Made by a program: the position numbers and the translations under genes. A stretch of 63,534 bases of DNA, counting the filler, from Hausera hauseri (lineage: Eukaryota): the NCBI GenBank assembly GCA_046269625.1. It is 10 parts of 10 records of this genome, joined end to end, with 100 filler letters (N's around TTAATTAATTAA, not from the genome) between each part and the next. Parts side by side here need not be neighbours in the genome. Positions count along the whole stretch, not along the records: positions 55,257 to 59,281 come from JBJURY010810531.1; 9 more parts are not named here. The stretch is one strand, 5' to 3'. How positions within the stretch are numbered: position 1 is the stretch's first letter; the number at the start of each line of letters is the position of its first letter. Positions 8,869 through 61,737 of the stretch are shown piece by piece. Under the pieces are notes generated by a model. It did no database searches and was not told where the DNA came from. It saw only the letters and a program-made list of their open reading frames with translations.

Positions 8869-9549
8869 NNNNNNNNNNNNNNNNNNNNNNNNNNNNNNNN
8901 NNNNNNNNNNNNTTAATTAATTAANNNNNNNNNNNNNNNNNNNNNNNNNNNNNNNNNNNNNNNNNNNNAGGTTTTTAACATTTGTTTTTTGGAAATTTGA
9001 ATTTTTGACATATTTAATTCCGACATTGAATATTTGCATGGACCTGCTGATACGAATATTTACAATTTCACCGATATCAGTTTTCTACCATTATCAATTT
9101 TAAAATACTATTTACACCATTTGGTCAGTTCACAACAATTGCGACATTTGGATAATTCACATCATTTCTCCTCTCTGAACGACATCCTCGGTTGTGCCCA
9201 TTGCGTCAGAAGAAGTAACGTCTTGATCAACGTCGGATCAACACTTCGATTGTACTCTCAGTTTGAATTATATTTTAACTCGGTGGCCTCTGCTCGATAT
9301 TGTCTAACGTCCACTTTTTAAGTAGTCTTGACAATATCGATGTTGACAGTTCTTGTTAGACGTAACCTTGTTTGAGATTAGCTTCGTACACTGGGCAAAC
9401 GTCTTCTTCAACTTCATCTCTAAATTCGCGTTTATAGTGGTTTTGATCCTTTCGAACACAAAAACCTGTATGGTCCTGATATAAATAGCCATAGCTCGTA
9501 ATTTTCTCGTTTTCGTTTATCTTTACTTCCGTGGTTCTTTTATTTCGTA

Positions 9550-10190
9550 ATGTATTTCGAATACTTGCAAACAAACGAAGACAAGGAACAATACGATAAG
9601 AATCCAATACCACCAAGCGAGATGGTATTGGTTACAGCAATGGAGAAACGCCCCTTTGGTAGACCTAGAAAAATACGAGAAGAAATTGACTATAATGAGG
9701 ACTTAATTAGAGAATTAAGACACATGTCGAAATCTACTTTCAATGCCGATAATGAAGAATTAAACGAACTCATGAAGAATTTAATACGTATCGTAAATTA
9801 CTCTAGTCTGTGGCGATGTACTAGACGAGAAAGAAAAAGCTATATATAATGCAGCCAAAAGTTGAGAAATTATCGTTTTAGGTTATCAAAAGCACCTTAA
9901 ATGATGAAATAGTGATGGACAAAATAATGGTAGAAAATACTATAGAAGCACTGAGAAAAGTGCTACTATATTTGGTCATTAAAACAAACTCAACTCGAGA
10001 AAATGAATTTAACAGAGCCAATAGTCTAGCCCGCAAAGTTGCTAGAAAATTGCCTCGAGAAGTAAATTGGTCGAAACTACTTGAAAAATAAGAGCACCAG
10101 AATAGACCATCTTCTAGCAATATCAATAACAGATTCGAACAAATGGTACGAAACTTAACCGGTAATAACCGAGGAAACGAATCAAATTGT
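9550..10190 (+). pseudogene. Unknown helical ORF immediately preceding a viral-type glycoprotein
   Basis: A-rich frameshifted ORF. LLYLVIKTNSTRENEFNRANSLARKVARKLPREVNW weakly resembles the pre-glycoprotein segment at 57650-57760. Confidence 0.4.
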
Positions 10191-11602
10191 TTAATTAATT
10201 TCCAAACCTTAATGATGTTAGTAAAGCCAATGGGAGCTGTTACGGTGTACAACTGCGACAAATTCAAACAGCCAAAAATATTCACTGATGGATTTAGAAA
10301 CGTGCGAAGACGCAAGGCCACATAAATTAGAAACAAAAGAAAAATATCAACAGCGTGAGCTAATCCCGTTAGTAGAATAGAATGTATGTTACGTACATCC
10401 CGTAGTATTTTCCACTGTGGACTAATGCATGGACATTCATCGATAATAAAACCAACAACTCCACCAATCCCAATGAATCTAGAAAGACAACATTATAAAC
10501 AGGCTAGAGAAACTGGTAGATTAAAATGGAGTGGTATGGAACTAGAAATACAACAAGGAAAAATAATTAGATTATTTAAGGTGGAAGTCGGAAAATCAGA
10601 TATACATACCGGAGTATGTAGTGAAGCCGAATACGACACTGAAAAAGGAATAGAAGGAGGCGTAGTAGTTGTTGACTTTTGTGAAACCGAAATGCGGACA
10701 CAAAAAGTGATGTTTCATAGCGTTACTAAACTCTGCCGAAAATCAGAATTGTCGTATACAAGACGGCACTTGTGATTTTAGAAGTTCAGTCGTAATTTTG
10801 GAACTTCCAACTAAAACCGATTGTAATTTTATCAAAATTAAAAAACTAAAGTTTAACGAAACGTCAGGAAAACGTTATGTAAACAGTATGGATACCAGTT
10901 TGAAAACGCGAGAAGACATATCAGTACAACCTATGAAAACCATATTAATTTCCGATATTCGCGGGTTAAAATTCGTGAGAAAGGACGTACTCATACGTAA
11001 CGTAGTGATGTATGCTACTAATTACGAAGAACTTTTTGTAGCTAAAACAGAAATAAACACTAAGACATTCAAACTCGAAACACAAGACGTAAGAATCGAT
11101 GATTGCTTGAAAAATAGAAATGACAAGCCGTAATAACCGAAATGTATCACAAAATGATAACCGGTGATTTCAAATTAGGCTGGGAAATTATGAGAATTAA
11201 ACTAGCTCTAATATACGCTAACCCTGAGTTAGCGTCACTAATAATTCCAATGAAAGGTGTCAATTACTCAACTTAACCAACAATTTTGAAAGAATGTATA
11301 ACGAGTTTAGGCGAACCAATGTTCAGACGCAGTGAAACTGATTGGGTAAGTTTACCAAATGGAGGCATAATTACTCCACTCAGTAAATTAACATGAACCA
11401 ACTTAGTAAAGGGAATAACAGAAGACAAATCTCAAGACTGCAATTAAAGGTGTTTACAGACCGAAGGAAGTTGAAGCATTTAGACAATTTCTTGCTTTTC
11501 ACGCCCCGCATGCATGAATTAAACCGAGCTATGCATGCGATATTGGAAGATATTCGGTACCAAGTGAAATGGGAATCACTACTTGGAACTAACCATTATT
11601 AA
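10190..11602 (+). pseudogene. env: Chuvirus/herpes-gB-like (class III) envelope glycoprotein, frameshifted, no transmembrane anchor visible
   Basis: Hydrophobic leader, then VYNC..[fs]KYSLMDLETC, CMLRTSRSIFHCGLMHGHSSII, TGVC, C...GEPMFRRSETDWV, VFTD..LKHLDNFLLFTP. This matches the chuvirus-like glycoprotein pattern (YDC..SL.D...C; IxHCGMHSH). Homologous to 57890-59281. Confidence 0.8.
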
Positions 11603-13009
11603 AGCGTATATATAAAAATTTACATATATAATTATATATATACATATTAAAGTGTTGCAAGTTCGGCTGTTAAATTACTTTCAAGTGGTTTCGAATTAAC
11701 TTTAACTCCGTTATTATGGTAATAACAACGGTTTTGATAGAAATCTCAGAAAAGTTCATAAATTTTCACATTGTTTTCATGATAATAACACCATGATTGT
11801 GAAAAATTATGAACCTTTTGTAACTGTGCAGAAGAACTTTTCGGTACCTATTTTATGTGTAAAAATTTTCATCGGAAAAGCTTCGAAAGTATTTCGAAAT
11901 CAAAGATTTTCATTTTTGCGAAACACATTAGTATATATAATTTTAAAATTGGGGGACAAATTGTAGAAAAGGTCTCAATATCATTGAATATTATTTAATC
12001 TGAATAGAAAATTTAGAATGTTTCAATAATAAAGCCAACAAAAAGTCACACAACGCATCAGTTACATTTCATATTCTGTAAATTTCATCGTACTTGTAAA
12101 AATTCATAGTTGAAAAGTGCATTATTTAGCCTTAAATAAAATATTGATTTATAAGCCAAACTAGTGTTTTGTTGAAATAATTTTTCGTCAATGCAATATC
12201 GTTACTCATTGATTATTTTAAAAGTTCATTCAGAATCCCTCAATAAGTTCAATTCTGCAGTAGTTTTACGAGTCATTGAATCAGACATATGCAAATTTTG
12301 TTTGTAATGATTCTGTAGCCACATCGTTTAATTGAAGTTTTCCGACCTCCGTTGTGTGTCCTTTACAATGTCAATCATCAATTCAAACGTACTAAAATTG
12401 TAGGAAGTTTTGCTGTTAATTTGGATATGTTATGAAGAATAATAATAATATTGAAAAATGGCTTTGCTTTTATGTTAAATTTTATTTACATCCACGTTTT
12501 AATTATATAAAATAATGCATCAGATTTTTAGATTGAGTTGATCTGGCGGGTTTTGATAAATGGAAACGAATTTTACTGTAAATCTGTTTTTTTTTTTTAA
12601 TAAAAAATGGTCAGAGACGTGCAAAATATAATGCTGACTAATAACATGAAAATAAATTTTGCCAAGGAAGCCAAAATAACTCAATTGGAGCCTCGAAACG
12701 TAACCGAATTCAAAATCTGTTCAAGTCGTTCTTACTATGTTTAAGAATTTCGAACCTTTTCTCGAACTAATGTTATTTTCATATTCGATTTGAATGATCT
12801 TTTGGAAGAGTCTTAAAAATACCCATCCTATATTCAGCCCATATTAAGTGGTAACTGTGGTCAAATACGTGAGATAATATGCGATTATCAATATAGATTG
12901 ACAGAACAANNNNNNNNNNNNNNNNNNNNNNNNNNNNNNNNNNNNNNNNNNNNTTAATTAATTAANNNNNNNNNNNNNNNNNNNNNNNNNNNNNNNNNNN
13001 NNNNNNNNN

Positions 13010-14980: not shown

Positions 14981-17900
14981 TCACCCCCCCCCACGTGACA
15001 AAGCAACGACTATGGACTTAAGAAAGTTGAAAATATGGAGGAACAATGTAGTCTACCTAAGAGGTCCTTGTATAAATAAGACGTTGAATACCATCAATAT
15101 ATAGTTCCTTAGTGTAGGTACTAAATGTGACTGATTTGTGGTGTTTCGATGACTTTATATCTGCTTGCTGAGATGATTGAGGTAAAACAATGTCTAATGT
15201 TGTCGTGTAAGATGTTGTGTCGTTCAAGGACGAAAAAGAAGGGGAAGAAGGAGATGTAGAAGGAAAGAAAATGAACGCTGTGTCACTAGTAGAAGTGGAG
15301 GTAAGAGCGGGCTTTGAAGTAGGATATGAAATAGGCGTAGAGAGAGAAAGGAATAGCAATAGAAAAAGGAGCAGAAATGGAGGTCAGAATGGAAAAAGAT
15401 GTAGTGGGTCTTGAAAGTGAGATAGGAATATGCAAAGGAGTCAAAAAGGGTGTAGAAGATTCAATTTTTGGAATATCATCTACGAAAAAGGCAGGCTTCA
15501 CATTGTTTATATGCACCGCTAGTTCCTTACCGTCTTTAGAGATAATGGCATTGTGAAAGTGCAGTTGAACAAGTTTGTAGGGCACCAAATGTCGTAGGTG
15601 AAAACCGCACAGCATCTGGTTTCTCAACCAGACAAACTTTGCAGAATATAAATCATCAGGAAGGTACATTTTATTGTTATGCAATATTCTGCAAAATAAA
15701 TCTTTACTGATTGCGACAAAGTGGTCCTGTGCCGCTCGGATCGTTTTGTCTGTAGGTGTTTCTTCCAAGGCAATTAGCACAAATAATAAACATATAGGAG
15801 CTCCGAATAGGGCTTCGGGAGGTGAAGTCTTTCGCCAACCTAGCAGAACTAACGGAAGTACGGCTGTCCAACTATTATTGGATTCAGTGAGGATTCTTAA
15901 CGACGTTTTCAGTGTTCTGTGGAATCTTTAGAAGACCATTTGATTGGGGTGATACTGTGTTGTGTGTATATGGCTGATTCCTAATCGATTAACGAGTGAT
16001 TTAAACAGGTTGGATTCAAACTGAGGAGCTTGGTCCATAATAATGAACCTAGGGGATCCAAACCTGCTGATCCATGTGCGGATAAAAACGTCGGCTATTG
16101 TGTCTGTGTTAGCGCTCCGCAGAGGGACAGCTTCTGGCAATCGCGAGGAACGATCCATCATTGTCAAAATAAACTGATGACCGTTGTCAGGATGGAGAGG
16201 GCCAACAAGATCTATATGTACGGACTCGAAACGCGATGTGCATGGGAAATAATATAGTGATGGACTCAAATGCTTGACGGTTTTAAATTTTTGGCAGGCC
16301 ACACATTCCTTAATCCACGCTTGCACATCGGAACGCATAGACGGCCAAATTACCTGTCGTTGAAGCAAGCGAAAGGTGACTTTAGCACCAGGGTGTTGTA
16401 GTAAATGTACGCTGTTGAATGCCTGTTTTGCAAGGCCGCAGCTAAGATTATTTTAACCTGTCTTTGTTTGGGCGTGTCGAAAGCCACGCCGCCAATAATA
16501 TTTCAGTACGTAAATGATTTAAGGATGTCTTGGTGTGGTTGGTTTTCTTGAAGCTGGTTTTGAGTGAAAATAGGCTTAAAGTTAATTGAGCTTACAAACC
16601 TAGATAAAAAGTCGGCGACAAAGTCGTTAACGCCATTTATATGTTTTATTTCGAAATTAAATGTCGACAAATATGAAATTAGTTTTTCCTGTCGAGTAGA
16701 AGGATGTTTCATTCCCATAATGTTTATTAGGGGTTTATTGTCGGTTTGTATCGTGAAACGCCGAGCAGTGAGCAAATTTAAAATATGTTTCAAGACGAGA
16801 ACTATCGCTAGTAGTTCCCGGTCGAACGTGGAGTATCTGGCTTCAGGAGATGCTAGTTTTAATGCAAAAACGCTAGTGGTTGATTTTCGCCTTTATGAAT
16901 CTGGTGTAGTAGAGCACCTATGGCGCTAGTAGAGGCGTCAGTAGTAAGGATAAGCTCAGCGTCTGGCTTAGGGTATGCTAATATTTCGACAGTTTTTAGG
17001 CTTTCTCTTAACTTATCAAACTTATCTAGGAGTTCCGTTGCCCACTGTATTTGTTGATGTTTTCTTCCGCTACTTAGGTAAGCAAAGAGTGCGGTTAGTT
17101 CTGAGCAGTATGTAACATATTTGCGGACGAAATGTAACGTGCCTAGGAAACTCCTCATTTCAGTTGATGTTCGCGGTAATTGCAAGCTTTTGAGAGATTC
17201 AACACGGTCTGGCTGAGGAGAATGCCCTTCGGGAGAAATAACGTGTCCGAGGAAATTTATGTGTCGTTTAAAGAAATGACATTTTGTAAAGTTTATTTGG
17301 AGGTTCTATTGGTGTAAACGGTGAAAGATGTATCGTAGATGTTCCTTATGCTCTTTGGTGGATGAAAAAGCAACAAAAATGTCGTCAATGTAAATATGAG
17401 AATAAGGAAGATAAAAAATTGCATCCATGTGACGCTGGAAAGCTTGTGCGGCATTCCGTAGGCCAAAAGGCATGTAGAAGTATTCGTAAAGGCCGAAGGG
17501 TGTAGTAACGGCAGTTTTTTCGATATCTTCTGGTGCTACCGGGATTTGATGATAAGTCTTTGCCATGTCAATAGTGGAATAGATTGTGGTGAAATTGTGA
17601 CGATGTAATATGTCTTTTATCAGTAGTAAGGGGTACGCGTTCATTATGGTCAAAGAGTTTAGCTGCACATAGTCACAACATGGTCGCCTTTTTTGTACAA
17701 CGTGTAAAGGAAAAGACCATGGTGACTTTGAACGACGTACAATGCTGGAGCGTTCAAGGTCTAGGAATTCGGCTTCCACCGCTTGTCTGCTTCTAGGTGA
17801 TAATGGACGTACCTTTTGACAAATGGCCCTTTGGTGTTGCGTAATGATGTGATGTAAAGTGCTATTTTCTGGTGTGAAAAACCTATCTTTTTGAATTACT

Positions 17901-19942
17901 CGAGTGCATGACATATTAAGGTACTGTTGCAGATTTTTCGGCAATTGTGAAAGATGGGGCGAAAGCAAAATGGTTTTGTCATCAGTAGTTGAAATTTGAA
18001 AGTTACTTGGTGGTTTAACATCTAATAGTATCTGAGGTAGACTGGTTGTGTTGAAAATTGAATCTGACATAGTGCTTTTATTCACTGTTTTTACAGTAGT
18101 GGCAAAATCACACTTGTCGACACTCAATCTTGCTACAATGCCAAAATCATATTTCAATAATTTATGAAATAAATAATGGTTATATGAAATAATCGGTTTA
18201 TTAGCTGGCATTTTCAGAATGGACTTCCTTACGACGCTCGTCTGCTCGACAAATGAGACGCTATTTATCTGTTTGGTTTGATTTTTAATGAATGCACTTT
18301 TCAGAAAACGTTGTTTACAATCCACTAAAAGATTGTAATGCTACAGAAAATCAGATCCAAGAATGGCTGTCTGGACATTTGCGACAGTAACTGTCCAATG
18401 AAACTCTAAGGAGGAATTTGTCAGGGTGAAGGAAAATTTAGAAGTTCCGGAAACATGCAATGGTTGTACCGCAGCTGTAAAAAGAGATTTTATTTTAGAT
18501 GTAACGTTCTAAACAGGAAAAGTCAGCGATAGAAGTAATATCGCGGCGCCTGTATCAATAAGGAAATTTATATGTTGAGGCGTCGGTGCCATGGTAGATA
18601 TATGCATGATATATGCAAACAACATTGTCTGTGCGATACTTCTGGGTATAAAATTTGCATCATAGGTGGCATTTTTGTGCTTTGTTATCAAACCTTCCGT
18701 GGTAATGGCAAATCTGTATATGCCCAGTTGAAGATGAACGACCACGGGATACAGAACGATTACGACCAGAGATAAAACTCCTTCGTTGCGTCAGCGAAAT
18801 TTCATCTAATCTGTTATTAATATTATTAATTGTTTTGTAAGGTCGCATTTTCGGTCCGTAGTTGATTTAATTGTTGTTCGAATGCTGTATTATTTTTATT
18901 AACAGATGCAGAAATGATTGGTTGTGCGTGTAGGTTCAGAACTTCATATATCTTGTCCGCTAATTCGGCCAATTTATCAAGGGCCGTTGATTCTTCGATG
19001 CCGGTAATTAAAGCTAGGATCTGGATGGGCAATGCGTTTAGAAAGTAGCGTCATAAAAGGTCTGCATTATGTTGTTTAGTAACCCTGAGAGTTTGCAGTT
19101 GAGCAAGAGAGGTTCTAAGGAAATCAGATTGTATCTGTGTTCCCTTGGAATTGCCATTGAAGAATCTATAAATAATGGAATCCATAGATGGTTCCGTAAG
19201 TTTTAATACTGCGTTATAGAGATTGGTGTATGGGTCAAGTTGTTGAAAGATATCTAACAGATCATGAATAAATGTTTTACTGCCGTCGGTAACAGACAAA
19301 GTAAGCTGAGCTTTGGCTGATGGATCGGTGATGCCACTAGACTTCAGCCAAAGTTTATGAATATTAAACCATGTTTTGCTTGAATTTTCATGGTCTATAA
19401 AATACTCTGTGCATGGGAAAGAAGTGCTCTTAGACTGCGGGAGAGTAGTGGTACAAGTAGTCATGTTGAGTGGTGTGGTGACAGTTGTTGACTTTTGAAG
19501 ATAGGTGGTGGGTATAGCTGTAGTGGAGGTTTTATGCGTTGTGTCAATTGTTGGTGAAGAATCCATACCACCAAGAATATAAATGTGTACGTGAATAATG
19601 AGATATTTGGTTTAAGGAACGGAAAGGTTGTGAAAATTGACATTAATTAAAGATAGATTGTGAAAAGTAAGGTAAAAATCAGAGATATTAGGAAAGTGTT
19701 GTACATAATTGTGTAAGTAAGGTGCGTCTATAAAGTACGTTGTTTTGTTGTCCAAATAATTGGCAATTATTTAGGACAAGTAAAAGGAGAGAGTTGGTGT
19801 TGGCCCTAGTGGTTGATGTGGTGACGCAACGGACCGTGGGGTAAAACCCGCTGACAGGACAGACGGCCCGGCAGTCGGTTACACTGTGATGCACCCGAAA
19901 ATCCAGAATGATTAAATCCCCTCCGGTGGGTCCAGTCAGGGA
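14981..19942 (-). mobile_element. Ty3/gypsy LTR retrotransposon internal region (degenerate gag-pol), copy B
   Basis: Gag from 19566 (FPCTEYFIDHENSSKTWF), protease [29 protein letters not shown], RNase H TDAS/ADFLSR, integrase HIDLVGPL/DQAPQFE, then polypurine tract. Colinear with copy A. Confidence 0.96.
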
Positions 19943-28543: not shown

Positions 28544-30718
28544 TCATGTAGAATAATGTCCATATGCGACAATTTTATTTTTCTGGATCCATTGCCTTTT
28601 ATCATCAAATGGGTCCAGCGCTTTCTTCCTTGTTGGTATTGTCATCAATTGATGATTTTTGGTCCCAATTCACTCCTGTTCCACCACAGTCAAACAACCG
28701 GTTTTGTATGCTTGTAAGTAGCTGTCGAACTGTAAGTCAATCTGTTTCAGATTTATGCCCTTGCATTTGATGACTTGTATGGTTTGGGTTTTGAAGGCAT
28801 AGGATTTTGGCTGTAGGAAAATCGCCTCTTGATACTAAACGCAGCCCTTGCTCTTATCTTTAAATTTCCCAATTACAGATGCAAAACGAGTCGAGTACAG
28901 CGGATCACTTTTATCATAGTTAGAAGTGTCTAACTGCTCGTTTGCTATCATCGCCGGTAACAATTGTGATCTCAAATGAACACCACGACGTACGATGAAA
29001 AAACTGTCTGCCACCAGCAGCGATATTTAACTCGCTTTTAAACTAGTACCTGTCTCCAACTCGATATAATTCAGTTCATACATACGTAACTTGGATAGAT
29101 CAAGTACGGCCTGACCAATGTATAAGGGTCTGTCTAAGGTGACCATGTCTTTATCAAGGAGAATGGCAACGAGATCATCGGCTATTATAATACTGTCTTT
29201 AAACTGTGCCTTATTAGCATAAGTAAAAAGCTTTTTAGCATTATTACACAATCTTAAGTTGGACCTTTTCAGTAGATTTTCAACTGTTTTGCCACACAAA
29301 CTACTGTTCGTCAGCTTAAAGAAGTCCTTCTCAAAAGGATTACTTACTGCAGCCCTCTTGGAAGTATTTAAATCGATGTAATATTTAAAAACATAACCCT
29401 GGTCAAATTCAACAGCTCGATGAACTTTTTCATCTACAGCGCCTAACTCGATGTACAATTGTAAAAGGCGATAATGAATAACGTAGTTGGACTTATGCTC
29501 GTGTCCGCAACAATTTCTTTACTTTGGAACCAGGAGGACATTGGTTGATAGGAGCAAGAGGCAACTGATCTAAATTATCGTGCTTGTCAGATAGGATGCT
29601 TAAATCAACCTCAAAGACTAAACCTCGTTTGTCCCTAACAGTATCAATAAAGGGTAATTGCTCAATCAGGTTGTTTAATTTATCTTCATAATAAATCCAA
29701 GTCAAATTCGCAAATGGCAGAGGTTGAGATAAAGCCCAGCCGTACAAATTATTTACATTTATATACAAGAGACTAATGCTTTCATCGGTTACAACCCTAT
29801 GCTTATTAACAAAAGTCATACCACCGCGAATTCCTGATGGAAAGAAACTATGCATTTCAAAATCTTGAATGAGCGCAATCTTACAAGGACCTGATTTTAA
29901 TGCTGTTGCCCAAGATAAACCGGGAATTGAAATGAAGTTTACTGTCTCTAAACCATCTTGTAACCTAATCTCCTTTTTAAACCGTTCAAAAATATCACCT
30001 AAGAAGTATACATCGAGTTTCATGCATACCAACATGTAATCTAAAATACGGCTACAACTATATTTCGACCAAGCCCTTTGTGCTTCTTCATAATCGCTGT
30101 CACTAACACAATCCCATTTTGGTAGTAATTTAGTAATCGACTGCAAATCATTGCATGTTTTGGCTGCAGTGTATGGAAAAATTCTTTTTCCCTTAATGAT
30201 GTCAGAAGGAAAAGCCGATTCTGTAAATAGGTAGTTGTTTAAGTTAGAGGCTAAAGTCTTTAATGAAGCCGATAAAAACTGAACAGTGTCTAGAAATCTA
30301 ATAGTAACCGACTTTATACCCGAATATCTTATCATTGCAAACAGTAAAATTTTTCAGTCGTCTGTGGAATAACATTTAATTCCCAACTGTTCAATTTCCT
30401 CAATGAGTGTTTCACAATATGATGAAGATCATATCCACGCAAATTATGACACATAAGTGGTAAATTATATCTGATCTGACGAGCCAAGTTACATTTGTTG
30501 CAAGCAGGTCCTAAGAATTTACCTGTAACATTACAGTGATCTCGAACAAAGTCCGAAACGTTTTCATGACAAAGGTAACACGCTGTAGCATTTTTGAAAA
30601 GATACCATTCAGCAGATGGTAACAGGATTATGGATTTTTTCGCATTTTCATACCATGGGAAAACAAGTTTCTTAACAATTGCCTCCAAACAGACCAGAAA
30701 CTCAACTATGGAATTTTA
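28544..30718 (-). pseudogene. Protein-primed family B DNA polymerase (Polinton/Maverick-like) with N-terminal endonuclease VII-like domain, disrupted
   Basis: CYLC..VRDHCNVTGKFLGPACNKCNL, HNLRGYD, RFLDT, GIRGG, YINVNNLYG (degenerate YxDxNxLYG), FFKLTNSSLCGKTVEN, KCKGI, KALDPFDDKR...AYGHY*. Confidence 0.9.
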
Positions 30719-35992: not shown

Positions 35993-36329
35993 AAATTAGT
36001 GCGTCGCTAGACTTTAATTCAGATAGTAGTTAACTAAAATGACATACCGGCGATCAGCGCCACTCACACCAATTAACTGAAATAGTCTGAAATTAACATT
36101 TGGATTATAAGTTGAAAGGGATTCTAAATAAAGTTATTAGAGAACAAATATTGATAAGTTTAAAGTAACTCTTGATCTAAACGATAAGGAAAATTCCCTT
36201 ATATGCCAGACGCGTAGAAATACATATAGAGACAATAAAAATTTAGATAAACGTTCATTTTGTGAAACCAGAGTAAACTCATTAAATGCAGATTTAACCG
36301 CCGTTGAGCGAACTGATTAGTTCAAAATT

Positions 36330-37440
36330 CCTATCATAAAATCTAAAGTTAATAAAAGTAATAAGGCAAAGATTAATCACGTAAATACTACGGCAGCAGA
36401 TAACCCACAAGTAACGCAGAAGCTAGATATTTTCACGTTTGATTCTCTGAACCTACCTGCATACGATGGTGATCCGGACGGATTGAATGAATTTTCAAGA
36501 ACTAATAAATTGCACGCAGAAGGTGCCAGTCTTACTCCTGAAGTAATGATTAAACGTTTGTCGTTATATTTGAAGAATTTAGCCGCTGATGCTTACAGCG
36601 AGCTCGATAATGATGAGAATAAATCTTGGTCCTCCTTAGTATGAGCATTGAACCGAAAATTATTGCCGACAGTAATGCCGCAACGGAAACTTATGGCATT
36701 TCAGAATAGGGTGCAACAGAAGAGTGAATCGGTAACCCAGTTTGCATTTTCACTAAAGAAACTCGCTAATAGTTATGTGAGCACCTTGAGAATAGCCAAT
36801 GTGGCAAGAGCCAAAACAGACGCGGAACGTGAGGCTGCAGAAAAGGCAACCCCTCCAGATTTTGACGTCATGATGACGACGCATTTAATTAATGGTATTT
36901 GGTCCTGAGATTTAGTGAAATAGTTGATTTTGGCCAGACCTGAGAATTTCGAATGGAGTTTGCAATTGGCCCAGGACTTAGAAATGTCACTTGATAGATA
37001 TACCAGACACAATGACAGAAATGATAGAAATAATGATTGAAATGATCGTAGTGATAGAAATCTGAGAGATGACAGACGATTTAATGGTAGTAGAAATTAG
37101 GAGAATAGAAATAGTAATAATGACTACAGGGATAGTCGGAACAATAATTGTGCTAGCGGCCGAAATATGAATAAGTCGAATTCCAATTCGGATATAAATT
37201 GAGGAAACTACAAAAGTTCTAACTATCAAAATCATTACGATGATAATCGAATTAATGATAGTCGACGAAATGTAGATAGTACACAAGGTTCGCCGAACCA
37301 GTACAATAGAAGCACAAATAGATTAAAATCACCTGTGAATGAAGACGGTCGACAGAGATCCGGCAGGAATGGAAATTTAGTTTGCTTTACCTGCGGTAAA
37401 GAAGGACACGTATGAAGGTCATGTCCGAACCCGCGTAGCG
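36330..37440 (+). pseudogene. gag: Ty3/gypsy-type gag with CCHC zinc knuckle
   Basis: LPAYDGDPD, LSLYLKNLAADAY, FQNRVQQKSESVTQFAFSLKKLA, LINGI, an N/R/D-rich linker, then CFTCGKEGHV*RSC (37383-37424). Start approximate. Confidence 0.88.
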
Positions 37441-40304
37441 TCTCCTTCACTGAACCTAATAAGGAGAGTATGATTAAAGTCAACGAGAACTTAGAAGGGA
37501 AATATGGTGTTCGTGAAGATACAGGTACTACTATCGACATACAAGATTTGCGAAAATTTCTAGATGCTCAGCCTGACACTACTAACCCACAAATTTTGAT
37601 GTCTAGAAAAAAATACGCAGATAAATTAGGGCTATTAGAAGTCTACCATGGTCTAGTAGAACAAGAAACTAAATGAGTATGCTATAGCACCAAAGCAAAT
37701 TGATATGACGCGGAAAAAGAGTATTCCGACAATAAATAAAACGGTAGATAAACCAGGAACCTCGACAGAAATCGACTTAGATGCAGAGCCTGAGTTTACG
37801 GTTGAAAAGTAGTCAAGATTACTGAAGATGATATTGCAGAAAAAGAATTTATGGAACCATTAATACTTAAAGTTACGAAAAACAAAGTCCGCAGCCCTTC
37901 ACTTAAGCAAAAACATAGAAGTCGTTCGCGATCGCAAGTAACTAAAGAGAAACTAAAAGAAACGAAAGATAGGAAAATCGCTGCAGAGTGCAACGTAGAA
38001 TCCAGCTTCAATACACCGGAATTTGGTCAATTTACACCCACAGAGGTGAGCAGAATTGTAGAGTCGATTAATGAGATTAATGAGGTTTACCCACTCCTCA
38101 CTAGTGAGGAAGAAACGGAGAACATTAAAGAATTTGACCACAAAAGTGGAAAAATGTCGATGAATTAAAGAAAATGAGAATTAGATGCCACGATCCCGAG
38201 ATACTGCAGCGGAATTTGGAAAGGCTTAAGCAGATTAGTGAACAAGTAGTTATATCTGGTAAAGAGCAACAATTTGCAGAGAGGTTATATAAAAGTTTAA
38301 AATTATGTAGTGAAGGAAAACTCGTTGAAGCAATCGACATAGGACAACCTGAAGCGGTACCACCTGAAACGTTGATAAAATGGAAACGTGAATTAGAATC
38401 ATGGATTAAAAGTGGAGTCGAATTCTCGGAAGGATGGAGTAAAATGAATATAGCGTTGATGTAAAGGTAGCTAAAGCTAAAACGTTATTCTCTACATTAG
38501 AAGCTAATCCCAAATTGAAGGGAGTAGTCCGTAATTCAGAACGCATGATGGATGAAATTCGATACGCAATGATTAATCGACTTAGTGAAAAACCGGTTAG
38601 CAATCGCAGTGATATCAATTTAGAAATATTGGGTATAGACCCAGTAGATATTCCTCCCTTAGTGGAAATGATAAAAATTTCCTTTGCTTTACCTAGACAA
38701 TATACGAATTTAGAGGATCGTATTAAAATGGAGAATGAAAAGAGATCACAAATTATTATCTTGAGAAATCGAATTATGTTTATGAATAACGAAGAAACCA
38801 AATATGTAATAAAAGCTTGTATCGTAGAATTCGACGAATATAAGGATGAGTTCAATCATGTCAGTCGGATTATGAGTTTCATAAAGGTCCAGATGATGAA
38901 TTAAAGGATTCTTATAAAATGCTAGAAAAGGCGATATTGGAAAAACCTGTAATAGCGAACCAATTGCATGAATGGTCCGAATTAATATCGAGACTAAGCA
39001 AATTTGCAGAAAGCGAGCCTACTATAAAGAGACAATTAGAGGAAAGTGCACGTAACTTGGATACAATGAGAGCGGAAGTAGATATCCGGACTCAATTCGA
39101 CGCATTACGCAAATAAATTTTATGAAAAGGAAACAAGAAGTGACGATGTTGGAAGAAATGTATAAAATGATCGAACAGACAAACTTTACAGAAAAGCGAA
39201 ATATGACTTGCAATTTTTGCTCAAGATTAGGAAACATCCGACTAGAAGGAATTCAACATTTAAAAGCTAAATCTATCGACGAAATCTCAACTCAAGATCT
39301 TGAAACTTCAAATGTTTATCCAGAAAATAGAGCAGCTATAGAGGAAGTGATGAGATTCCTACATAAATCACAAGAATGTATGCCCGGAACAGATCAAAAT
39401 TGCCATACCGAGTTGATAAAAATAGGAAACGACCACCATCTTAGTTTTGAAGAAGTTAAGTTCGTAAAGATATTACTCGATGCGATAGATCCTGACTCAA
39501 AAATCATTAATGAGATGTACGAGTTAGCCTTTTTTTAGTAGAAATGGCAGAAATCAATGGTGAGAAGATGAGGCAATTGATGCCAAAATTTCGACAAGTC
39601 GAAGAAACGTCATTAGAACCAAACAAAGAGCAATGGGGTTAGATGAACTAAATAAAGAATTTGAAATCTACGGAAACAAGTATGCTTTTACTGAGTCAGA
39701 AATTAGCAGGAAGATAGAATTTGTACAAAGATGGCAAAGGATGCAATTATCGAGCTAACCGAATATCATCAAAGAGGATTCATTCCTGAGAACGAACTGG
39801 GCGAACTATTAAAACTAACTCAATACGCTTGTGGAAAGGGAATAGGATTCCGGACCGCACAGATGAAAGAAATACAACCAAGATTAAAGGAAATTCGAGA
39901 GAATGTACAAATAATGAATACGGTGCTAGTAGACTACGGACTTCTAGAAGTTGGAAATGAACCAGAATGGGATGCTTACTTAGATGCGATAAATGTCAAA
40001 AATCCGATGACTCCAATACGGTTAAATGAACCAGAAATGTGTCCGCGAGGTAGGAGGTTTAATGTGGAGATGCTACTGATTCAGCGCTAACTGAACAGAT
40101 TTAATCGAACTAATTAACGTAAATATTCCTGAAAATAAGATAAGACAACTTATTCCGACTCTAACACACAGCGCGGTGCCGAAACTTTTAATAAGGAAAT
40201 ATACAAAAATCTTAAGGGCTAAACCTGAGGTAACGATGGAAGTAAAAATATCATGCGAGTGGATGGATGAAAAAGAATGTGAGTTAACCACATATTCCTG
40301 TGAG
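37440..40304 (+). pseudogene. Long unknown E/K-rich ORF following gag (no Pol motifs)
   Basis: About 2.9 kb of continuous frameshifted + ORFs. No DTG/DSG, YxDD or integrase motif seen. Confidence 0.5.
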
Positions 40305-53600: not shown

Positions 53601-55074
53601 ATTCTGGAAGATACGGTAAGACATGTTATGAAATATTATTAACAGTGGAGTTAAAAGCCAAACTGTTATGTTATAAGTTAAACATCGTTTGAAAGATACA
53701 AAAGATATAAACACTTGCATTGTGAGTGATATTCAACATAGCCCAAGGTGTTGACCTACTTTGATGTACTTAGCAGTTTACAATGTACCACATTCAACCT
53801 TAATAAATAAAGATGTTGCAGATATGAATTATCTGAACTTCGAGCATGTGAAGCAATTTGTTAATCTAGTGAACAAGCATTTGAAGGGACAATATTTACG
53901 GAGCATCATTGATCTGAAGTATATATTTAATGCTTTCTTGTGAACCAACATGGAGATACAGGAAAACAATCTGTACTTCTAAGGTCTCTTATGACATGGT
54001 GAGATTTAACTAAGATTGCAGAACCATAGCGGAGATTTCGAATGATAGATACATGAACATGAGTTTATGAAATGCAACTGAGAACAGCTAGCACAGATAT
54101 GATATATCTTCCAAACATGTGTGACTTCCTGTGCTAATAATCGTTTGTTGACAAGAATATGACAGGAACCAGATTTGCGTTCCAGGAAAAGGTGTGATAT
54201 ATTGCCTATACTCATATCAGTGACATATATGAAGATTCTTCCTTTATATTTTTGTGCATAACCTACTTATTACTGTCATTTATCTTTTCCTTGATTAAAG
54301 AAGTGTTATTCAGTGAATAGCTTCATGTTTATTAGTGCATGACATTGCATGACTTGAAAGTTGGATGCACAGATAATCCCTAACAATTCAGCAGGTATAG
54401 TATTACTTCTAATAACCCATGAAGTGACTAATTGAAACTGGAAGAGAAGAGTCGAAAGAGTGAGACATAAAGACTATTTCTCACCACTCTTATATTTTGG
54501 CCATGCCGTGACACCACCAAGATTATATCACAAATAACTTGGTGGTGCCGCGACCCAGGCACTAGACCAGATTTGGAGGGAATGTAAATTCTGCATTATA
54601 ACTCAGGCAACAACATACGATTGTTACAAAAGATTTAATACTTAAAGGAGACATAGCAAGTTCAATTGTTCAAGTCACACACCCTATCATACACTTTTCC
54701 TAGAGCTGTATGAGCACACGAAGATTGTGAAGGTTGGATGACTGAATAGTTAAAGTTAAGAAAGAACTACAGAGAGATCAGAATAAATAATGCAGAAGCG
54801 GGAAAGAAGAGGTGATTACTTCACAAGAACGTATAGACACAATGTTGACGGAATAAAACACGTGAAACAAGCATATCAAGAAATATATCAAACACTAGAA
54901 GACATGCAACAACAACACCATCAACCAAGGCATCTCACCTTCTGTCTATTTGATGTGTTCTTTCCGACACTTCATTATAGATTATACCGTAAAGAAACAA
55001 ACAAATACATGTATGAACAGGGCACTCTATAAGAACAAACCAGACAGCAGAAAAAAACAGAGAGGAAATTGGTC

Positions 55075-55156: not shown

Positions 55157-55349
55157 NNNNNNNNNNNNNNNNNNNNNNNNNNNNNNNNNNNNNNNNNNNN
55201 TTAATTAATTAANNNNNNNNNNNNNNNNNNNNNNNNNNNNNNNNNNNNNNNNNNNNGCGGCTAATCAAGTTAAAATTATTTGTTATCCCCATTAATTAAT
55301 CATTTACGTGAAAGTCTCTCCCAAAGTAATTAGTGAGGATTGAACAAAC

Positions 55350-55368
55350 TGGTGCCGTGACCCGGAAT
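55350..55368 (+). promoter_or_regulatory. Primer-binding site, tRNA-His type, after LTR end ...GAACA (55346)
   Basis: TGGTGCCGTGACCCGGAAT is near-complementary to the tRNA-His 3' end (expected TGGTGCCGTGACTCGGAT). Confidence 0.85.
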
Positions 55369-55494
55369 CATTATTTCATAACCTTTGGATTAAGAAAGTA
55401 TCACCATTACCACAAGGAATGGAACAATTTATTATCCAGAAGAAAACGAACCCTACATACTAGAGTATTTAAGAAATTTAAGTGCGAAGAACCT

Positions 55495-56340
55495 ATGGCA
55501 AATCATAACGTAGAGCAGGTGATTCAGTCGAAGGCTAATTTCACCTTACCGATGAAAAAATTTTCGGGCAAAGAAGACATACAGGATTTCATGATGGAAT
55601 ATGAAGTATATTCCAAAAGGTTCGGATGGGACGACAAGCAAAGAGTGGAAAGATTACCCCTTCGTCTAAAAGGGACGGCCCTTATGATCTATTTCCAGAT
55701 GCCGGAAGAAGGCAAGAAGGACTGGAAAGTAATTAAAGAAAGGCTGCCTCAAAAGATTTTAATAGATCCCTCTGGAAAGGGCAGAATCGAGGAATTCATA
55801 AGAAGGAGGCAACGTAAAGATGAAACAGTCCTGGCCTTTATCTGTGCATTGGAAAAACTTGCATCAAGAGCATATCCGGACGTTACGATACGGAATAACG
55901 CATTGTTGGCCCAATTCCAATACGGATTAGAAGGAAGATTAAGGACGATAATCTCACAAGCAGACCCGCCTACGTTCCAAGAAGCAATAAGAAAGGCGCA
56001 GAAAGCCGAACGAGATGCGGAACTGTATAGGTGGAATAAGTCTAAAAGTAATAACAATGGTTACGACAAAAGAAGAAACAATAGTACTCAACGGTATCAA
56101 CAATATGAACGAAACAGAAGCCCCTCACAAACGTCAGCCACGGAAGCTGAATCAGATGTGGAAAGGAAAGTCAGATTTAATTTACGGAACGATGGGGAAA
56201 GGCAAGTTATAGGAAGAAATCTAAGAAGGATGGAAGATCCTTACCTAACATGGATTCCGAAGGAAGACTGAAGTGTTTCAATTGCAATAAATATGGGCAT
56301 ATAGCCAATGAAAGTAAGAAAGAAGACAAAAAGAAAGAAA
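55495..56340 (+). CDS. gag: Ty3/gypsy-type Gag (capsid domain open; zinc knuckle after a frameshift)
   Basis: FSGKEDIQDF..YE...GWDD....LPLRLKGTA, RRQRKDETVLAF..LEKLASRAYP, QFQYGL, PPTFQEAI, then CFNCNKYGHIANE. Confidence 0.92.
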
Positions 56341-57890
56341 GTGGCAATTATATCAACGATACATTATCACAACGCACGAAGAAGCAATTAGAAATAGAGC
56401 TAAAGGAGTATGAAAGACAGCAGCAAATACTGAAAGAAAGTAGTATCTATATGATAGAAAGTCAACCACAGAAACAAGTATCTCATAAAGGAAGAAAGAA
56501 AGGCAATAAGAAAATAGCTGATGTAGAGGTTGAATCAAGAGAAACATCAACAGAGAGGGAGGAGGTAGTAAAAGAAAAGAAAAGAGGAAGAAAGAAGAGT
56601 AACCTCAGCACATCTTCACCCTCATTTAGTCCAGAAGAAACTCAAGCTACGCCAATATTCGAAGATGCTATATAGGATCAGATAATAAGGAATCCAGGCG
56701 TAGATCTAGACGAAGAGGAAGATATCATTCAGGCAGTAATGACTGTCGATCCCGATAATATTATCGATTTGGATAAAACGACTACCACAGTATTAAAGAT
56801 ACTTACCAATAAAATAACGGCAAAAAGGATAAACGAAATATTACCTCAATTGGTGCTATTAGCACAAGACACCAGTCCTGTTAGAGAAATAGCTTGGACG
56901 GTATTGGCCAAAGCTGACGAGGACAAGAAAGAAAGAAACGAAGTAATACGGACAACGGTAAAGGAAGATAACCATGATATGAGGGTCATTAGGATGAACG
57001 AAGGAGACGGTATCTAATCTATAAGAAAAAAGATTGAGGAGTTGGAACCTTTTTATCAAGGAAGCCCTTATGGACTAAATTATTGGGGAAGGACGTTATA
57101 TAACTACGATAAATTATTGAAAATTGGATGTAGAAGTAAGAATTACAATCCAATAACTATAACAGAAATACACTAAGAGGCAAGAGCACAGGCAACAGTG
57201 GAGAATACACTAAGGGAAATGGAAACACATGGAGTAGAAGAAATCTCTACGGGTGATACACAAGATATCACAGTTCAAACGGAAGCCAATAGAAGAGGTA
57301 AGCCGAAAGGGACGAAAATAAGTGACATTCGTAACAAAAAAGATAGAAACGAAAAAATAGTAAGACGATTATTATTAGCAGGAACAAATGGTACTCCCGA
57401 GTCGTGGACATAGACCCATTATTAAGAACGTTGTTGGCTAAGCTGCAGACGTCATTTGCCTCATTTGACATGCAGGCAATAATCCCAGGCGAACTGTTCA
57501 CAACGTTACGTAATAATATGCTACTAATAATAGCCAATTCTATAAAAACTTAGAGGAAGAACGGGTAAACGAACTGCATGAGCTAGATATTTTAGAAAAA
57601 AATGTTTTCAACTGGAATTATGCGCGAGAAAGCTAGAACGGCGATATCATATCTTCTATATAAAATAATAGTAATTAATCACCAAACTCAAAATCTAGAA
57701 GAAATTGGGCGGAATATAAGGAGAGCCGTAAAGATTTTGAAAGATACGTTAAGCAATTGGGCTCAATGTAGAGGTGGATGGTTGACTAGCCTGATGACCA
57801 ATATAATAATGTCAGGGGAACAAGGAAAAGTAACAGATACGCCAATTGCGACACAATCCAACATCTCTAGACCAGGCATAACAGGTATGT
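56340..57890 (+). pseudogene. Unknown charged/helical ORF between gag and env
   Basis: Continuous frameshifted + ORFs with no protease, RT, RNase H or integrase motifs. Confidence 0.5.
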
Positions 57891-59281
57891 CAATGATGGA
57901 GATTATTCAAATTCTCCTAATAACATCATTATTGATGCCGAAAGCTGTAGGTATAGTAGCTTATGACTGCTCTGAATCTAGTGAAGGTCAAAAATATTCT
58001 CTAGTGGATTTGGAGAAGTATCCAGAAGCCGAACCAGAACAGTTAACAACGACAAGTGATCTTACATACTGGATATATTAAGAATCCGAATTCATAAAAG
58101 CAAAAGTTAGGGAATATTACGTAAAAAGATCATTTTTCCTGTTTAACTGTGCCTATTTTTCTGGAAATTCAGCTACAATAGAGCCCACGACACCTTTCGA
58201 ACCAATACTTATATCACGAGCAGAATGCCAGGATGCTTTTAAGATTGGTATCATAACAATACAAAACGCGCATATACAAGCAGTTTGAAATCGAATAAAA
58301 TATACCAGAATATTTAGGGCAGGAAGAATAGATAAGATAATGGAAAGTACTTGCAAAGGAGTCAGTTATGACGTGGGAGGTACTACTGCGCCTAGAACGG
58401 TAGCCATCAAAGATTATCAGATTCAGTTGAAGGAATACGAAGTGTTATTCGACTCACATACAAAACTGATAACGACTACGAGTGAAGGCGAATATGATAA
58501 TGGCGAATGTGCTACTGAAGAATCAAAAATGACTTGGGAAACCACTGCAAGTAAATGACATTTAACGTTATTAAAGGAAGAAAAGTTTAATAAGACAGTA
58601 GGAAAACGGCAGAAGAAGAAATAGCGATATATAAAGAAGGAACAAAGGAAGTCAAGATGACAGAAGTAGCTACAATTGTATATTCGGAAAATCCGGAAGA
58701 AATGGTGCGATTTAAAATCACGGGAGTAGCAACTAAGTGTAATGAAGAGATATCAAAAGCCAACTACAAGGGTATTGTCTTATCGAGAAAAGAAATACCC
58801 GGGGCGAAGACCAAAATAGATAAGACATAAAGTTAACGCAATGCTTCAACAATAAGATTGATTTTTTAATCAACTACGTAAGGAAAGAAATCAGCGGATT
58901 ATATCGAGAAATAATAATGAATGAATGCCAGCTGAATTACAAAATAATGCGCAACAAAATGGCATTGGTAATAACGAATTCGGACATGGTAGCGCCCGTA
59001 ATGCCCTTTGGCGACGGAATTATTGGTAGAGTGATGGGCGAGATATTGATAACAATAGAATGTAAAAAGGTAGAAGTATCAGTCAGACCCACAGAAGAAT
59101 GTACATTGGAATTACCTGTGGTTTACCATACAGAACCGAGATATGTGAGGCCAGTAACCAAAATATTATCAAATATTAATGTGAAGCCTACTCCTCTATA
59201 CAACTGCACCTTCAATATGTCGCCAATGTTTAAGATCGACAACGACAAATGGATTAGAATGCCCAAAAGAGAACCAGTGCC
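57890..59281 (+). pseudogene. env: Chuvirus/herpes-gB-like envelope glycoprotein, cut by the contig end
   Basis: Signal-like MEIIQILLITSLLMPKAVG|IVAYDC...KYSLVDLE, ECQDAFKIG, STCKGVSY, NECQL, GRVMGEILITIECKKVEVSVRPTEECTLELPVVY...YVRPVTKIL...C..MSPMFKI...W. Confidence 0.85.
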
Positions 59282-59675: not shown

Positions 59676-60377
59676 TTAAATATCTTTCACACAAACTCTG
59701 CATCTGGGAATAGTCTTTTCGAAGTTTACATCATTTCGATACGTTTCACCAACTGGTTTGGCAAAACTATCTTGAGGCGTTATTCGTAAGTAATAAACCT
59801 TTGCGTCAGACCAATGGTCGCATTTTCCAGCAACATTATTACATTCAATGAACGGAGAATACCGCAAATGTTCAAGACAGCTTCCTGGAGACGACAATTG
59901 TTGACTGCCAGTGGTATGCATAATTAAACTATACCCTTTCCATAATTCACTCCAAGTTTCCGGACAAGGGGTATTAGGCAGGTTATTTTGATTATGGAAA
60001 ACAAATACATGAGATGGTGCACTGCATACTACGCAGCGAGAAACAAGACTTTTCACCTCGCTTACGTTTACAGGCGTTTCTGTAATTGGACTCAAACTGC
60101 TCAACCAATATGATCGATCACTTCGAATGTTAAAATGACATTCTTGACCTCGATCACAGTGAAGAAGAGGAATGATACTGAATTTAGACAAATAGGAACT
60201 AGGACTACCTAAGTCCACTGACATGAGCATTTCACTAGCATCGGCCATTACGAAGCTGTATCCTTTCCTAATAAGTAGGGTACCCTCGGGACAATTATAT
60301 GAATCATTGTTATTCAACGCTTGAAAATGACGAGCAAATAAAATTTCCGTTCGATTTAGGGCTGCGGGTTTGACCAT
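59676..60377 (-). CDS. Stand-alone type IV collagen NC1 domain (two C4 repeats), intronless, 233 aa
   Basis: FARHFQ..CPEG..GYS, DLGSPSS, RSYWLS, SRCVVCSAPS, CPETWSELWKGYSLIMHT, LSSPGSCLE..PFIEC, RCRVC. No Gly-X-Y repeats, and an in-frame stop 14 codons upstream of the ATG. Confidence 0.93.
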   Translation of the reverse strand: MVKPAALNRTEILFARHFQALNNNDSYNCPEGTLLIRKGYSFVMADASEMLMSVDLGSPSSYLSKFSIIPLLHCDRGQECHFNIRSDRSYWLSSLSPITETPVNVSEVKSLVSRCVVCSAPSHVFVFHNQNNLPNTPCPETWSELWKGYSLIMHTTGSQQLSSPGSCLEHLRYSPFIECNNVAGKCDHWSDAKVYYLRITPQDSFAKPVGETYRNDVNFEKTIPRCRVCVKDI

Positions 60378-60749
60378 TATTTTGCAATTTCTGTTCGCAA
60401 TTTCGTAATTTTGTATTTATCCCACTGTGAGTACTTCTGAAATTCATCGGCTAATTATTTAAATTTTTCCGTTAATGGTCATGGTAGAAACCATGTGGAT
60501 TAAGTTTAACGGATTGCTTGTTAAACCGATGGAAGTTGTCAATGTGATCAATATGATCGCAACTGCTGTTACCTTATAAATCTCCAATTGCGTCATTTGC
60601 ACTTCACTGACAAAACACTATCATTCTCTGACACGATTAAACCGACTGTGGGTTTTTCGTTGTTGTTGGTTGGAGAATGAATTATTATATGGCTTAAATA
60701 GTACATTCGTGCTTCAAATGTACAAATTATTCTTGTTCTTATCCATAGT

Positions 60750-60860
60750 GTGAATGTTTTTCTTCAATCGTTCGCGTGCCATTTTGTTGCCGGCATATAC
60801 CGGTTTAACATCTCTTCCGACTTCATCAATCACTTGCAAAAGACTGTTGTATTTCTTGGG
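60750..60860 (-). pseudogene. CDK2-associated protein (CDK2AP1/DOC-1) fragment
   Basis: KKYNSLLQVIDEVGRDVKPVYAGNKMARERLKKNIH versus the family motif [37 protein letters not shown]. Confidence 0.85.
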
Positions 60861-60954
60861 GTTTTCTGCTGCAGTACTTTGGATAAGAGTTTGTATTTAA
60901 CAATTCAATTATTTCAGAGTTTCGGATATTTTCAACTCCTTTTGAATGTGTGTA

Positions 60955-61190
60955 TTTATCAATAATTTCTATTGCAACTTCTTTCTGGGTGATAACATGC
61001 TTTGCTAGCTTCACTTTTGCAAAATTTCCTTTACCAATAGTTCGAATAAATTTGTACTTTCCAACATTCGGCTGTTCGTGCCAATTCGTTGAAACTCTGT
61101 TATCTAAACCATCTGTTACTGAATCGTTATGCAGAGTAGAATTTGATGGAAAATCGTTTGTATGGACATAATTTTCCTGCAACGGAGGTA
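60955..61190 (-). pseudogene. MARK/PAR-1 kinase N-terminal fragment (subdomains I-II only)
   Basis: EQPNVGKYKFIRTIGKGNFAKVKLAKHVITQKEVAIEIIDK. The catalytic Lys appears as Glu and kinase homology stops abruptly. Confidence 0.88.
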
Positions 61191-61198
61191 ATCCTTGA

Positions 61199-61737
61199 TT
61201 ACTCGTCATCACCGAAATCGTCGTGATTGAATTTCGAATCCAATCCGAACTCGTCATTGTCCGACTCAGCATTAACATCTTCCTCGATAACATTTTCACT
61301 ATCGGTCGCTTTCTCCACGTAGTATTTTGGCGACGACCAAGGAAATCCACGTTTGTTCAACGCAAACTCACAGAGTGTCGTCAAACCTGAACAACATATT
61401 TTCCGCAACCTGACTTCAATTCTGACGGTGAAATATTCAAATTTTCGTTGATCTGTCTGACCGCTTGCAACAACATCGATATACTGGCACTTGGATCATC
61501 GTAATCTTGAGGTTGTTCCATTTTATAACCGCATTCCCGCACGAGCCATGCACCGAGGCTTATGAATGCATTGAATTGTTCTCCTGGGTTTGTTGGAATG
61601 GCAAAATAATGTCGCGAAATAGGTTTCATATGAAATGGTTTGCAAAAGTTTCTTTCATAACCTAATACCTTAAGCTTATCCCATACACTTTCTCTCTTTA
61701 CAAAAAACTTTATAAACACCACCGGGTCCTTCTTCAT
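61199..61737 (-). pseudogene. IFT57: Intraflagellar transport protein 57, N-terminal half, intronless, one frameshift
   Basis: DKLKVLGYE, SRHYFAIPTNPGEQF, AWL, QPQDYDDP, ELKSGCG, GFPWSSP, then an acidic tract. The C-terminal coiled coil is missing. Confidence 0.9.

Follow-up and report, generated by a model that had tools for sequence, protein, structure and literature searches.

The locus analysed here raises the question of where the pol gene of an LTR retroelement lies when its Gag is followed by an envelope glycoprotein (Env) and no Pol stands between them. A first-pass annotation of this DNA had offered two options, a gag-env-pol order or a bipartite design in which a Gag-Env element relies on Pol in trans. 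The element occupies one entire contig (positions 55257-59281; 4,025 bp, A-rich, both ends open) of the window, by which we mean the whole stretch of 63,534 nucleotides from Hausera hauseri that was analysed, made up of 10 contigs with 100-nt N/TTAATTAATTAA/N spacers between them. Our results make it very probable that this contig holds the decayed 5' portion of a compact, His-primed, Burro-like Ty3/gypsy gag-env-pol element of a likely flatworm host, with pol predicted beyond the contig end. The contig carries the parts listed in Table 1, in that order and in a broken frame, as far as the middle of Env, and its nearest relatives place env before pol.

Table 1. Features of the retroelement contig (positions count along the window).
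Feature	Position	Strand	Basis
Probable 3' end of 5' LTR	55257..55349	+	Deduced from placement before the primer-binding site; truncated by contig start
tRNA-His(GUG) primer-binding site, TGGTGCCGTGAC	55350..55361	+	12/12 match
Gag: capsid-like domain (~55543-56013), then N/R-rich low-complexity stretch	55495..56271	+	Ty3_capsid; Gag of relatives
Zinc knuckle, incomplete	56274..56315	+	zf-CCHC, E 2e-4; frame differs from capsid
Charged low-complexity linker	56316..56771	+	No Pfam match; no significant L001/L002 match
Short helical (ARM/HEAT-like) unit + ubiquitin-like domain, stop inside	56772..57164	+	Profile of relatives
Bcl-2-like domain, BH1-BH2 half, W..RGGW at 57758	57596..57793 (about)	+	Profile of relatives
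Internal signal-like hydrophobic segment	57893..57952	+	Hydropathy peak, before Env
Monjiviricetes/HSV-gB-type (class III) Env ectodomain (predicted)	57953..59281	+	PF24664; three frames, three stops

The primer-binding site (PBS) agrees at all 12 positions with the reverse complement of the His_GUG 12-mer given in supplementary file 1 of PMC13524379, and only 0.0009 such matches would be expected by chance on each strand of the window, which bears out its earlier assignment to tRNA-His. The 93 nt upstream, ending in ...GAACA and 3 nt before the PBS, are the candidate LTR; no second copy is present in the window. Gag matched Ty3_capsid weakly (E 0.006) and was 31% identical (E 4e-21) to the Gag of L002, a metagenomic locus described below that was its best match, 30% identical to that of P0016 and 25% to that of P0042. 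The zinc knuckle of the contig is missing its fourth ligand; in the relatives, capsid and knuckle lie within one ORF. A word-indexed search for Gag homologues among longer proteins returned no matches (728 candidates). The description of this part as a gypsy-type Gag with a knuckle thus stands, the knuckle being incomplete.

A codon model, whose training set consisted partly of these same ORFs, followed a single coding track along the contig through about six frame changes, and six in-frame stops lie on the coding path (56673, 57015, 57174, 58079, 58286 and 58556). With these breaks the copy is dead and unable to yield a polyprotein, in line with its first description as apparently one decayed polyprotein. 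As regards an in-frame Gag-Env-Pol arrangement, the copy in the contig is broken but keeps one continuous track, and its relative L002 is one ORF. The reported absence of Pol between Gag and Env was confirmed: Pfam found no family of protease, RT, RNase H or integrase in the six frames of the contig, and its plus frames contain neither a D[ST]G nor a YxDD motif.

Between Gag and Env, about 1.5 kb of unknown ORF had been described. The length was close (the linker measures about 1.6 kb), but the stretch is not unknown, since it contains the helical and ubiquitin-like (Ubl) unit followed by the Bcl-2-like module. We searched the window with profiles built from relatives, the window sequence being excluded from both and the Ubl profile comprising six segments of five relatives. 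The profile of the Ubl unit ranked its segment first among 630 tiles of the whole window (E 5.5e-6), and the Bcl-2-like profile did the same for its own segment (first among 630 tiles, E 4e-5; in an earlier pass, first among 1497 stretches, E 9e-5), so that a Ubi/SUMO-like and then a BCL2-like module are present in this order between Gag and Env. Reversed controls gave E 1.5 at best for the Ubl profile and nothing better than E 1.3 overall.

The names of these modules are likely and rest on the relatives together with weak PDB and Pfam matches. The top PDB match of the Ubl profile (A3) was the Ubl of UHRF1 (E 0.06), and the counterpart of the segment in L002 matched the Pfam ubiquitin family at E 0.0025. 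For the Bcl-2-like profiles, 55 of 55 and 57 of 60 of the PDB matches shown belonged to the Bcl-2 family (E 0.03-0.7); Pfam Bcl-2 was found in three of five aligned members (best E 2.3e-5) and in P0008 at E 0.00096. Taken by itself, the Bcl-2-like fragment of the window gave Bak or Bax in six of eight weak matches, and its alignment to P0008, over a region picked after the motif had been seen, scored above all of 5000 shuffles. The window Ubl stretch alone had no ubiquitin match, and pairwise BLASTP against P0008 found nothing. When six linker pieces were compared with L001 and L002 in pairwise shuffle tests, the Bcl-2 piece alone reached significance, and weakly so (11 and 6 of 500). Folds of the linker predicted from a single sequence and from four rows were of low confidence (pLDDT 39 and 49), and Foldseek matched none of them significantly; the top row of the linker fold search, a ubiquitin variant at E 0.66, was not counted as evidence. 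The motif NWGR, the canonical BH1 signature, is missing from all five aligned Bcl-2-like segments. The N-terminal half of the Bcl-2-like domain is likely spread across two other frames upstream, where it gave no match. Among 18 scanned polyproteins, most of them also used to build the profiles, the Ubl module was present in six and the Bcl-2-like module in six.

The hydrophobic stretch at 57893 is the sole one above threshold, and the relatives have an equivalent segment ahead of a conserved [AT][YF]DC; it accordingly retains its description as an internal signal-like segment. Downstream of it, PF24664 (Monjiviricetes_fusion) matched over profile positions 1-221 (E 5e-18) and 301-444 of 653 (E 3e-22), the contig ending at position 444, and these matches agree with the glycoprotein being of class III type as first proposed, a class assignment predicted from sequence. 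Env was 34-42% identical to the Env of the env-before-pol polyproteins L001, L002, P0005 and P0012. Six Schmidtea GAG-ENV-POL (C1a) rows covering Env domains I-II, from a portion of their source, match 58055-58800 end to end in an unscored comparison by eye. The last 152 codons (Env-C) had no match in the PDB by sequence and none in a word-indexed search among longer proteins (137 candidates), and a scan of IMG/VR gave six pattern matches, none of them confirmed.

A phmmer search with Env-C against 1.84 billion representatives returned 464 matches, and Pfam was run on 28 of the 150 listed. The results for the best 19 (P0004-P0022, E <= 2.4e-17) showed that a protease follows Env in nine, eight by Pfam and P0016 by motif, and that three of these nine continue into RT; the other ten are fragments ending in or at Env, and RT precedes Env in none of the 19. 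The closest match, P0004 (73% identity), is a 203-aa fragment without order information. Three cluster mates (P0154, P0158 and P0161) and the weaker matches P0037 and P0042 read Env-PR-RT-RH-IN in one ORF. The Pol of the relatives gave gypsy-type RT_RNaseH and Integrase_H2C2 matches, and no BEL-type families were listed. The protease of P0005 and P0012 starts about 240-250 aa beyond the point at which the contig ends, so that pol, if present, would not be visible in the contig; since its 3' end lies inside Env, at least 0.7 kb short of the protease start in any relative, it cannot demonstrate that Pol is absent.

A metagenome scan gave 57 pattern matches, from which five loci (L001-L005) were obtained. 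L001 and L002, with an Env identity of 42%, each consist of a single ORF (3,426 and 3,703 codons, respectively) in which Env precedes Pol, and L002 reads Gag-knuckle-Ubl-Bcl2-like-Env-PR-RT-RH-IN in one frame. This locus is the best match of the contig for Gag and Env alike, and its Ubl and Bcl-2-like modules follow one another as they do in the contig. The three other loci are more distant (26-28%): in L003 and L005 the order is gag-pol-env, Env having its own ORF downstream of pol, and L004 has a separate Env ORF after an ORF that resembles, by eye, the end of an integrase. A quick Env tree of 117 rows and 148 columns left out 35 of 151 matches, for short coverage (P0004 included) or, in two cases, as cluster duplicates. 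In this tree the window falls within a group of 20 rows that contains all 11 Env-then-protease rows, with an SH-aLRT of 90 (below 95) that gives this sequence-based placement moderate support; stand-alone glycoproteins of 600-750 aa sit in another part of the tree.

That the contig comes from a pol-less, non-autonomous Gag-Env element, packaged and copied by Pol acting in trans, is very improbable. The contig is without pol, no pol match occurs in the roughly 1.6 kb that follow a second Env relic (10131-11252), a second Gag contig runs for about 2.8 kb without pol, and P0008 and P0036 finish without a protease. However, the pol of relatives starts at least 0.7 kb beyond the end of the contig, the ectodomain of the second Env relic is likewise cut in the middle, and neither P0008 nor P0036 extends past Env, whereas a protease follows Env in every relative of sufficient length. 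The pol-bearing contigs of the window are only 28-37% identical to the Pol of these relatives, and the literature searched contained no published pol-less gag-env partner system, nor did a look for additional papers on Burro bring up anything else on such a design. There is equally little chance that the whole family lacks pol and is a Gag-Ubl-Bcl2-Env satellite of Burro-like elements, Pol being given by another element that shares its LTR and His primer; if true, this would be a two-part enveloped retroelement in an invertebrate, supplying or borrowing an envelope and cell-death control. Of the two options first offered, the bipartite one gained no support, the nearest relatives carrying a protease after Env, and the gag-env-pol order is well supported by the Env-then-protease relatives.

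Loss of pol from an ordinary gag-pol-env element through an internal deletion, with junk remaining between Gag and Env, would fit the heavy decay of the copy and the gag-pol-env order of the distant L003 and L005, which have the same Env family. Against this stand the linker, whose Ubl and Bcl-2-like modules follow the order seen in intact env-before-pol relatives and are not pol debris, and the identity of Env, which is 42% to the env-before-pol relatives and 26-28% to the gag-pol-env loci; we consider such a deletion, which the first-pass annotation had itself named as an alternative, extremely unlikely. The Env does belong to the Monjiviricetes family used by Anakin, according to portions of PMC12440569 and PMC13524379, as would be expected of a BEL/Pao element of the Anakin or Tas kind or of a chuvirus glycoprotein integrated by chance behind an unrelated Gag. 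The features of Anakin and Tas are a BEL/Pao Gag and Pol with Env after integrase, whereas the Gag studied here is of Ty3 type, matching Ty3_capsid and the Gag of relatives with gypsy-type RT_RNaseH and Integrase_H2C2, and Env precedes pol in the relatives. Chance juxtaposition is opposed by the one best relative, L002, that Gag and Env have in common, and chance integration by the position of the stand-alone glycoproteins elsewhere in the Env tree, so that an origin of either kind, BEL/Pao or accidental, has hardly any probability.

A collagen IV NC1 domain on a neighbouring contig scored 225 bits (46% identity) against Paragonimus, 162 against human and 153 against fly, and two further matches scored above Paragonimus. 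These matches point to a flatworm as the likely host, a call based on one gene and a length-limited search (89 candidates), the contigs being assumed to share one source. Together with the Gag and Env matches, they uphold the earlier proposal of an enveloped Ty3/gypsy-type element, with a lophotrochozoan as its likely host.

The gene order and the type of Env are already published, and novelty is not supported. An env lying in frame between gag and pol was described in 2019 for the planarian gypsy element Burro/GYPSM1 (Grohme et al. 2018 and Jurka 2007, as described in Arkhipova & Yushenova 2019, PMC6431247). According to the passages on Burro in that review, it has a Retrotrans Gag, CCHC knuckle(s), Ubi/SUMO-like and BCL2-like domains and an Env matching mononegavirus fusion glycoproteins, an ORF1 of about 4,900-5,100 aa in an element of more than 30 kb, and a flatworm host, with decayed copies in Dugesia japonica (PMC6431247). 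Compared by description, the contig resembles Burro in its Gag, knuckle, Ubl, BCL2-like and Env order and in its likely flatworm host; it differs in having about 2.4 kb from the start of Gag to Env and one knuckle, where Burro has two or three. Burro also carries a MATH domain ahead of Env, whereas no MATH, BIR or ankyrin domain was seen in the contig. Because it has one knuckle and no MATH, and its total size is unseen, we file it as Burro-like and not as Burro itself.

GAG-ENV-POL elements with an HSV/gB-type Env have also been described in Nematoda, Bryozoa and Platyhelminthes, nine of them in flatworms (Chary & Hayashi 2026, PMC13524379). In the portions of that source used here they are intact and termed 'ancient errantiviruses', and the hits for Schmidtea are 830/253 for ENV-POL versus 0/4 for POL-ENV (30 of 55 flatworm rows). 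The contig is like these errantiviruses in having a Ty3/gypsy Gag followed by a gB-type Env and a likely flatworm host, and unlike them in being decayed. It has a His PBS, whereas eight of the nine flatworm rows have no PBS assigned, and the 17 His_GUG rows (16 with F-type Env, one with gB-type) include no flatworm, bryozoan or nematode in the part of PMC13524379 concerned. Ubl and Bcl-2-like modules, present in the contig, go without mention in the passages on GAG-ENV-POL elements in that paper. The nematode non-canonical ERVs (Sacco et al. 2022, as cited in a portion of PMC13524379) have a flipped env/pol order and a captured RNA-virus-like glycoprotein; by this citation they resemble the gene order predicted for the element of the contig, but their hosts are nematodes. 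Anakin, a mosquito BEL/Pao element with a chuvirus glycoprotein, has the same broad Env family but is not Ty3/gypsy and is not among the nearest relatives. Troyka (PMC12440569) was considered and dropped, the passages on it giving no link to Env. The element would work like Burro and has, as far as could be tested, the features of the GAG-ENV-POL elements with gB-type Env; in architecture and Env it thus groups with Env-bearing families already described.

Its intact ancestor was likely one long Gag-knuckle-Ubl-Bcl2-like-Env-protease-RT-RNaseH-integrase frame, like that of Burro/GYPSM1. RNA from the 5' LTR would be translated as a single polyprotein, of which the Gag, Ubl and Bcl-2-like parts would remain cytosolic, the internal signal would direct the Env ectodomain into the ER and the Pol part would be returned to the cytosol past the Env membrane anchor. 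The chain would be cut by signal peptidase and by the element's own protease(s), and reverse transcription would be primed by tRNA-His. Env may serve the passage of particles between cells, and the Bcl-2-like domain may modulate host cell death.

A Ubl and Bcl-2-like cassette before Env is found in the giant Burro and, in addition, in the compact His-primed element described here and in several of its relatives. This suggests that enveloped gypsy elements with likely cell-death and ubiquitin-related modules form a broader lineage, in which intact relatives such as L002, at 3.7k aa, would be far more tractable than the 30-kb Burro for studying the threading of a single Gag-Env-Pol chain through the ER and the role that the Bcl-2-like domain may have.

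The second Env relic, on the contig at 8969-12909, belongs to the same family as the Env of the decayed Burro-like gag-env-pol element, and its decay is further advanced. It matched relatives at 20-26% and stopped mid-ectodomain. Upstream of it lay an AT-hook-like motif and, at E 2.4, a weak stretch resembling Bcl-2; downstream came AT-rich DNA in which no pol match was found. An 11/12 match to the His primer site had no Gag match behind it. The window also holds a type-B DNA polymerase fragment, which is Polinton-like.

Features in the window and in two metagenome loci (L001 and L002) with single Env-before-Pol ORFs
Feature	Position	Strand	Remarks
Gypsy pol	3000-5420	+	ordinary
Decayed Env relic	9646-11252	+	contig 8969-12909; PF24664 E 1.5e-5
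Gypsy pol	15289-18571	-	ordinary; on another contig
Type-B DNA polymerase fragment	29496-30353	-	
Decayed Gag with knuckle	36321-40304	+	26% to the Burro-like element's Gag, 28% to L002
His primer site match, 11/12	54543-54554	+	other contig than the Burro-like element's
Collagen IV NC1 exon	59679-60416	-	
Protein kinase exon	60829-61356	-	
Separate ORF, 3' of pol	L001:10617-12104		DEDD-type exonuclease (RNase_T) match, E 1e-5
Separate ORF, 3' of pol	L002:12085-13470		DEDD-type exonuclease (RNase_T) match, E 1e-3

L001 and L002 are both intact relatives, and the RNase_T ORF after pol was common to them. Among the protein relatives, P0154, P0011, P0012 and P0014 carried at least two aspartyl-protease-like domains 3' of Env, with seven such stretches in P0154, which also had ankyrin and C2H2 matches. 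Two ubiquitin-like modules each were present in L002 and in the relative P0158. The relative P0005 is clearly an animal-type env-before-pol polyprotein, and its database entry is a protein of a Flavobacteriaceae metagenome-assembled genome, in which it is likely a binning contaminant.

The second Gag and its knuckle were accompanied by approximately 2.8 kb of decayed coding sequence, in which no matches to Pol, Ubl, Bcl-2 or Env were found. This region is possibly the 5' portion of a longer element of the Burro-like kind.
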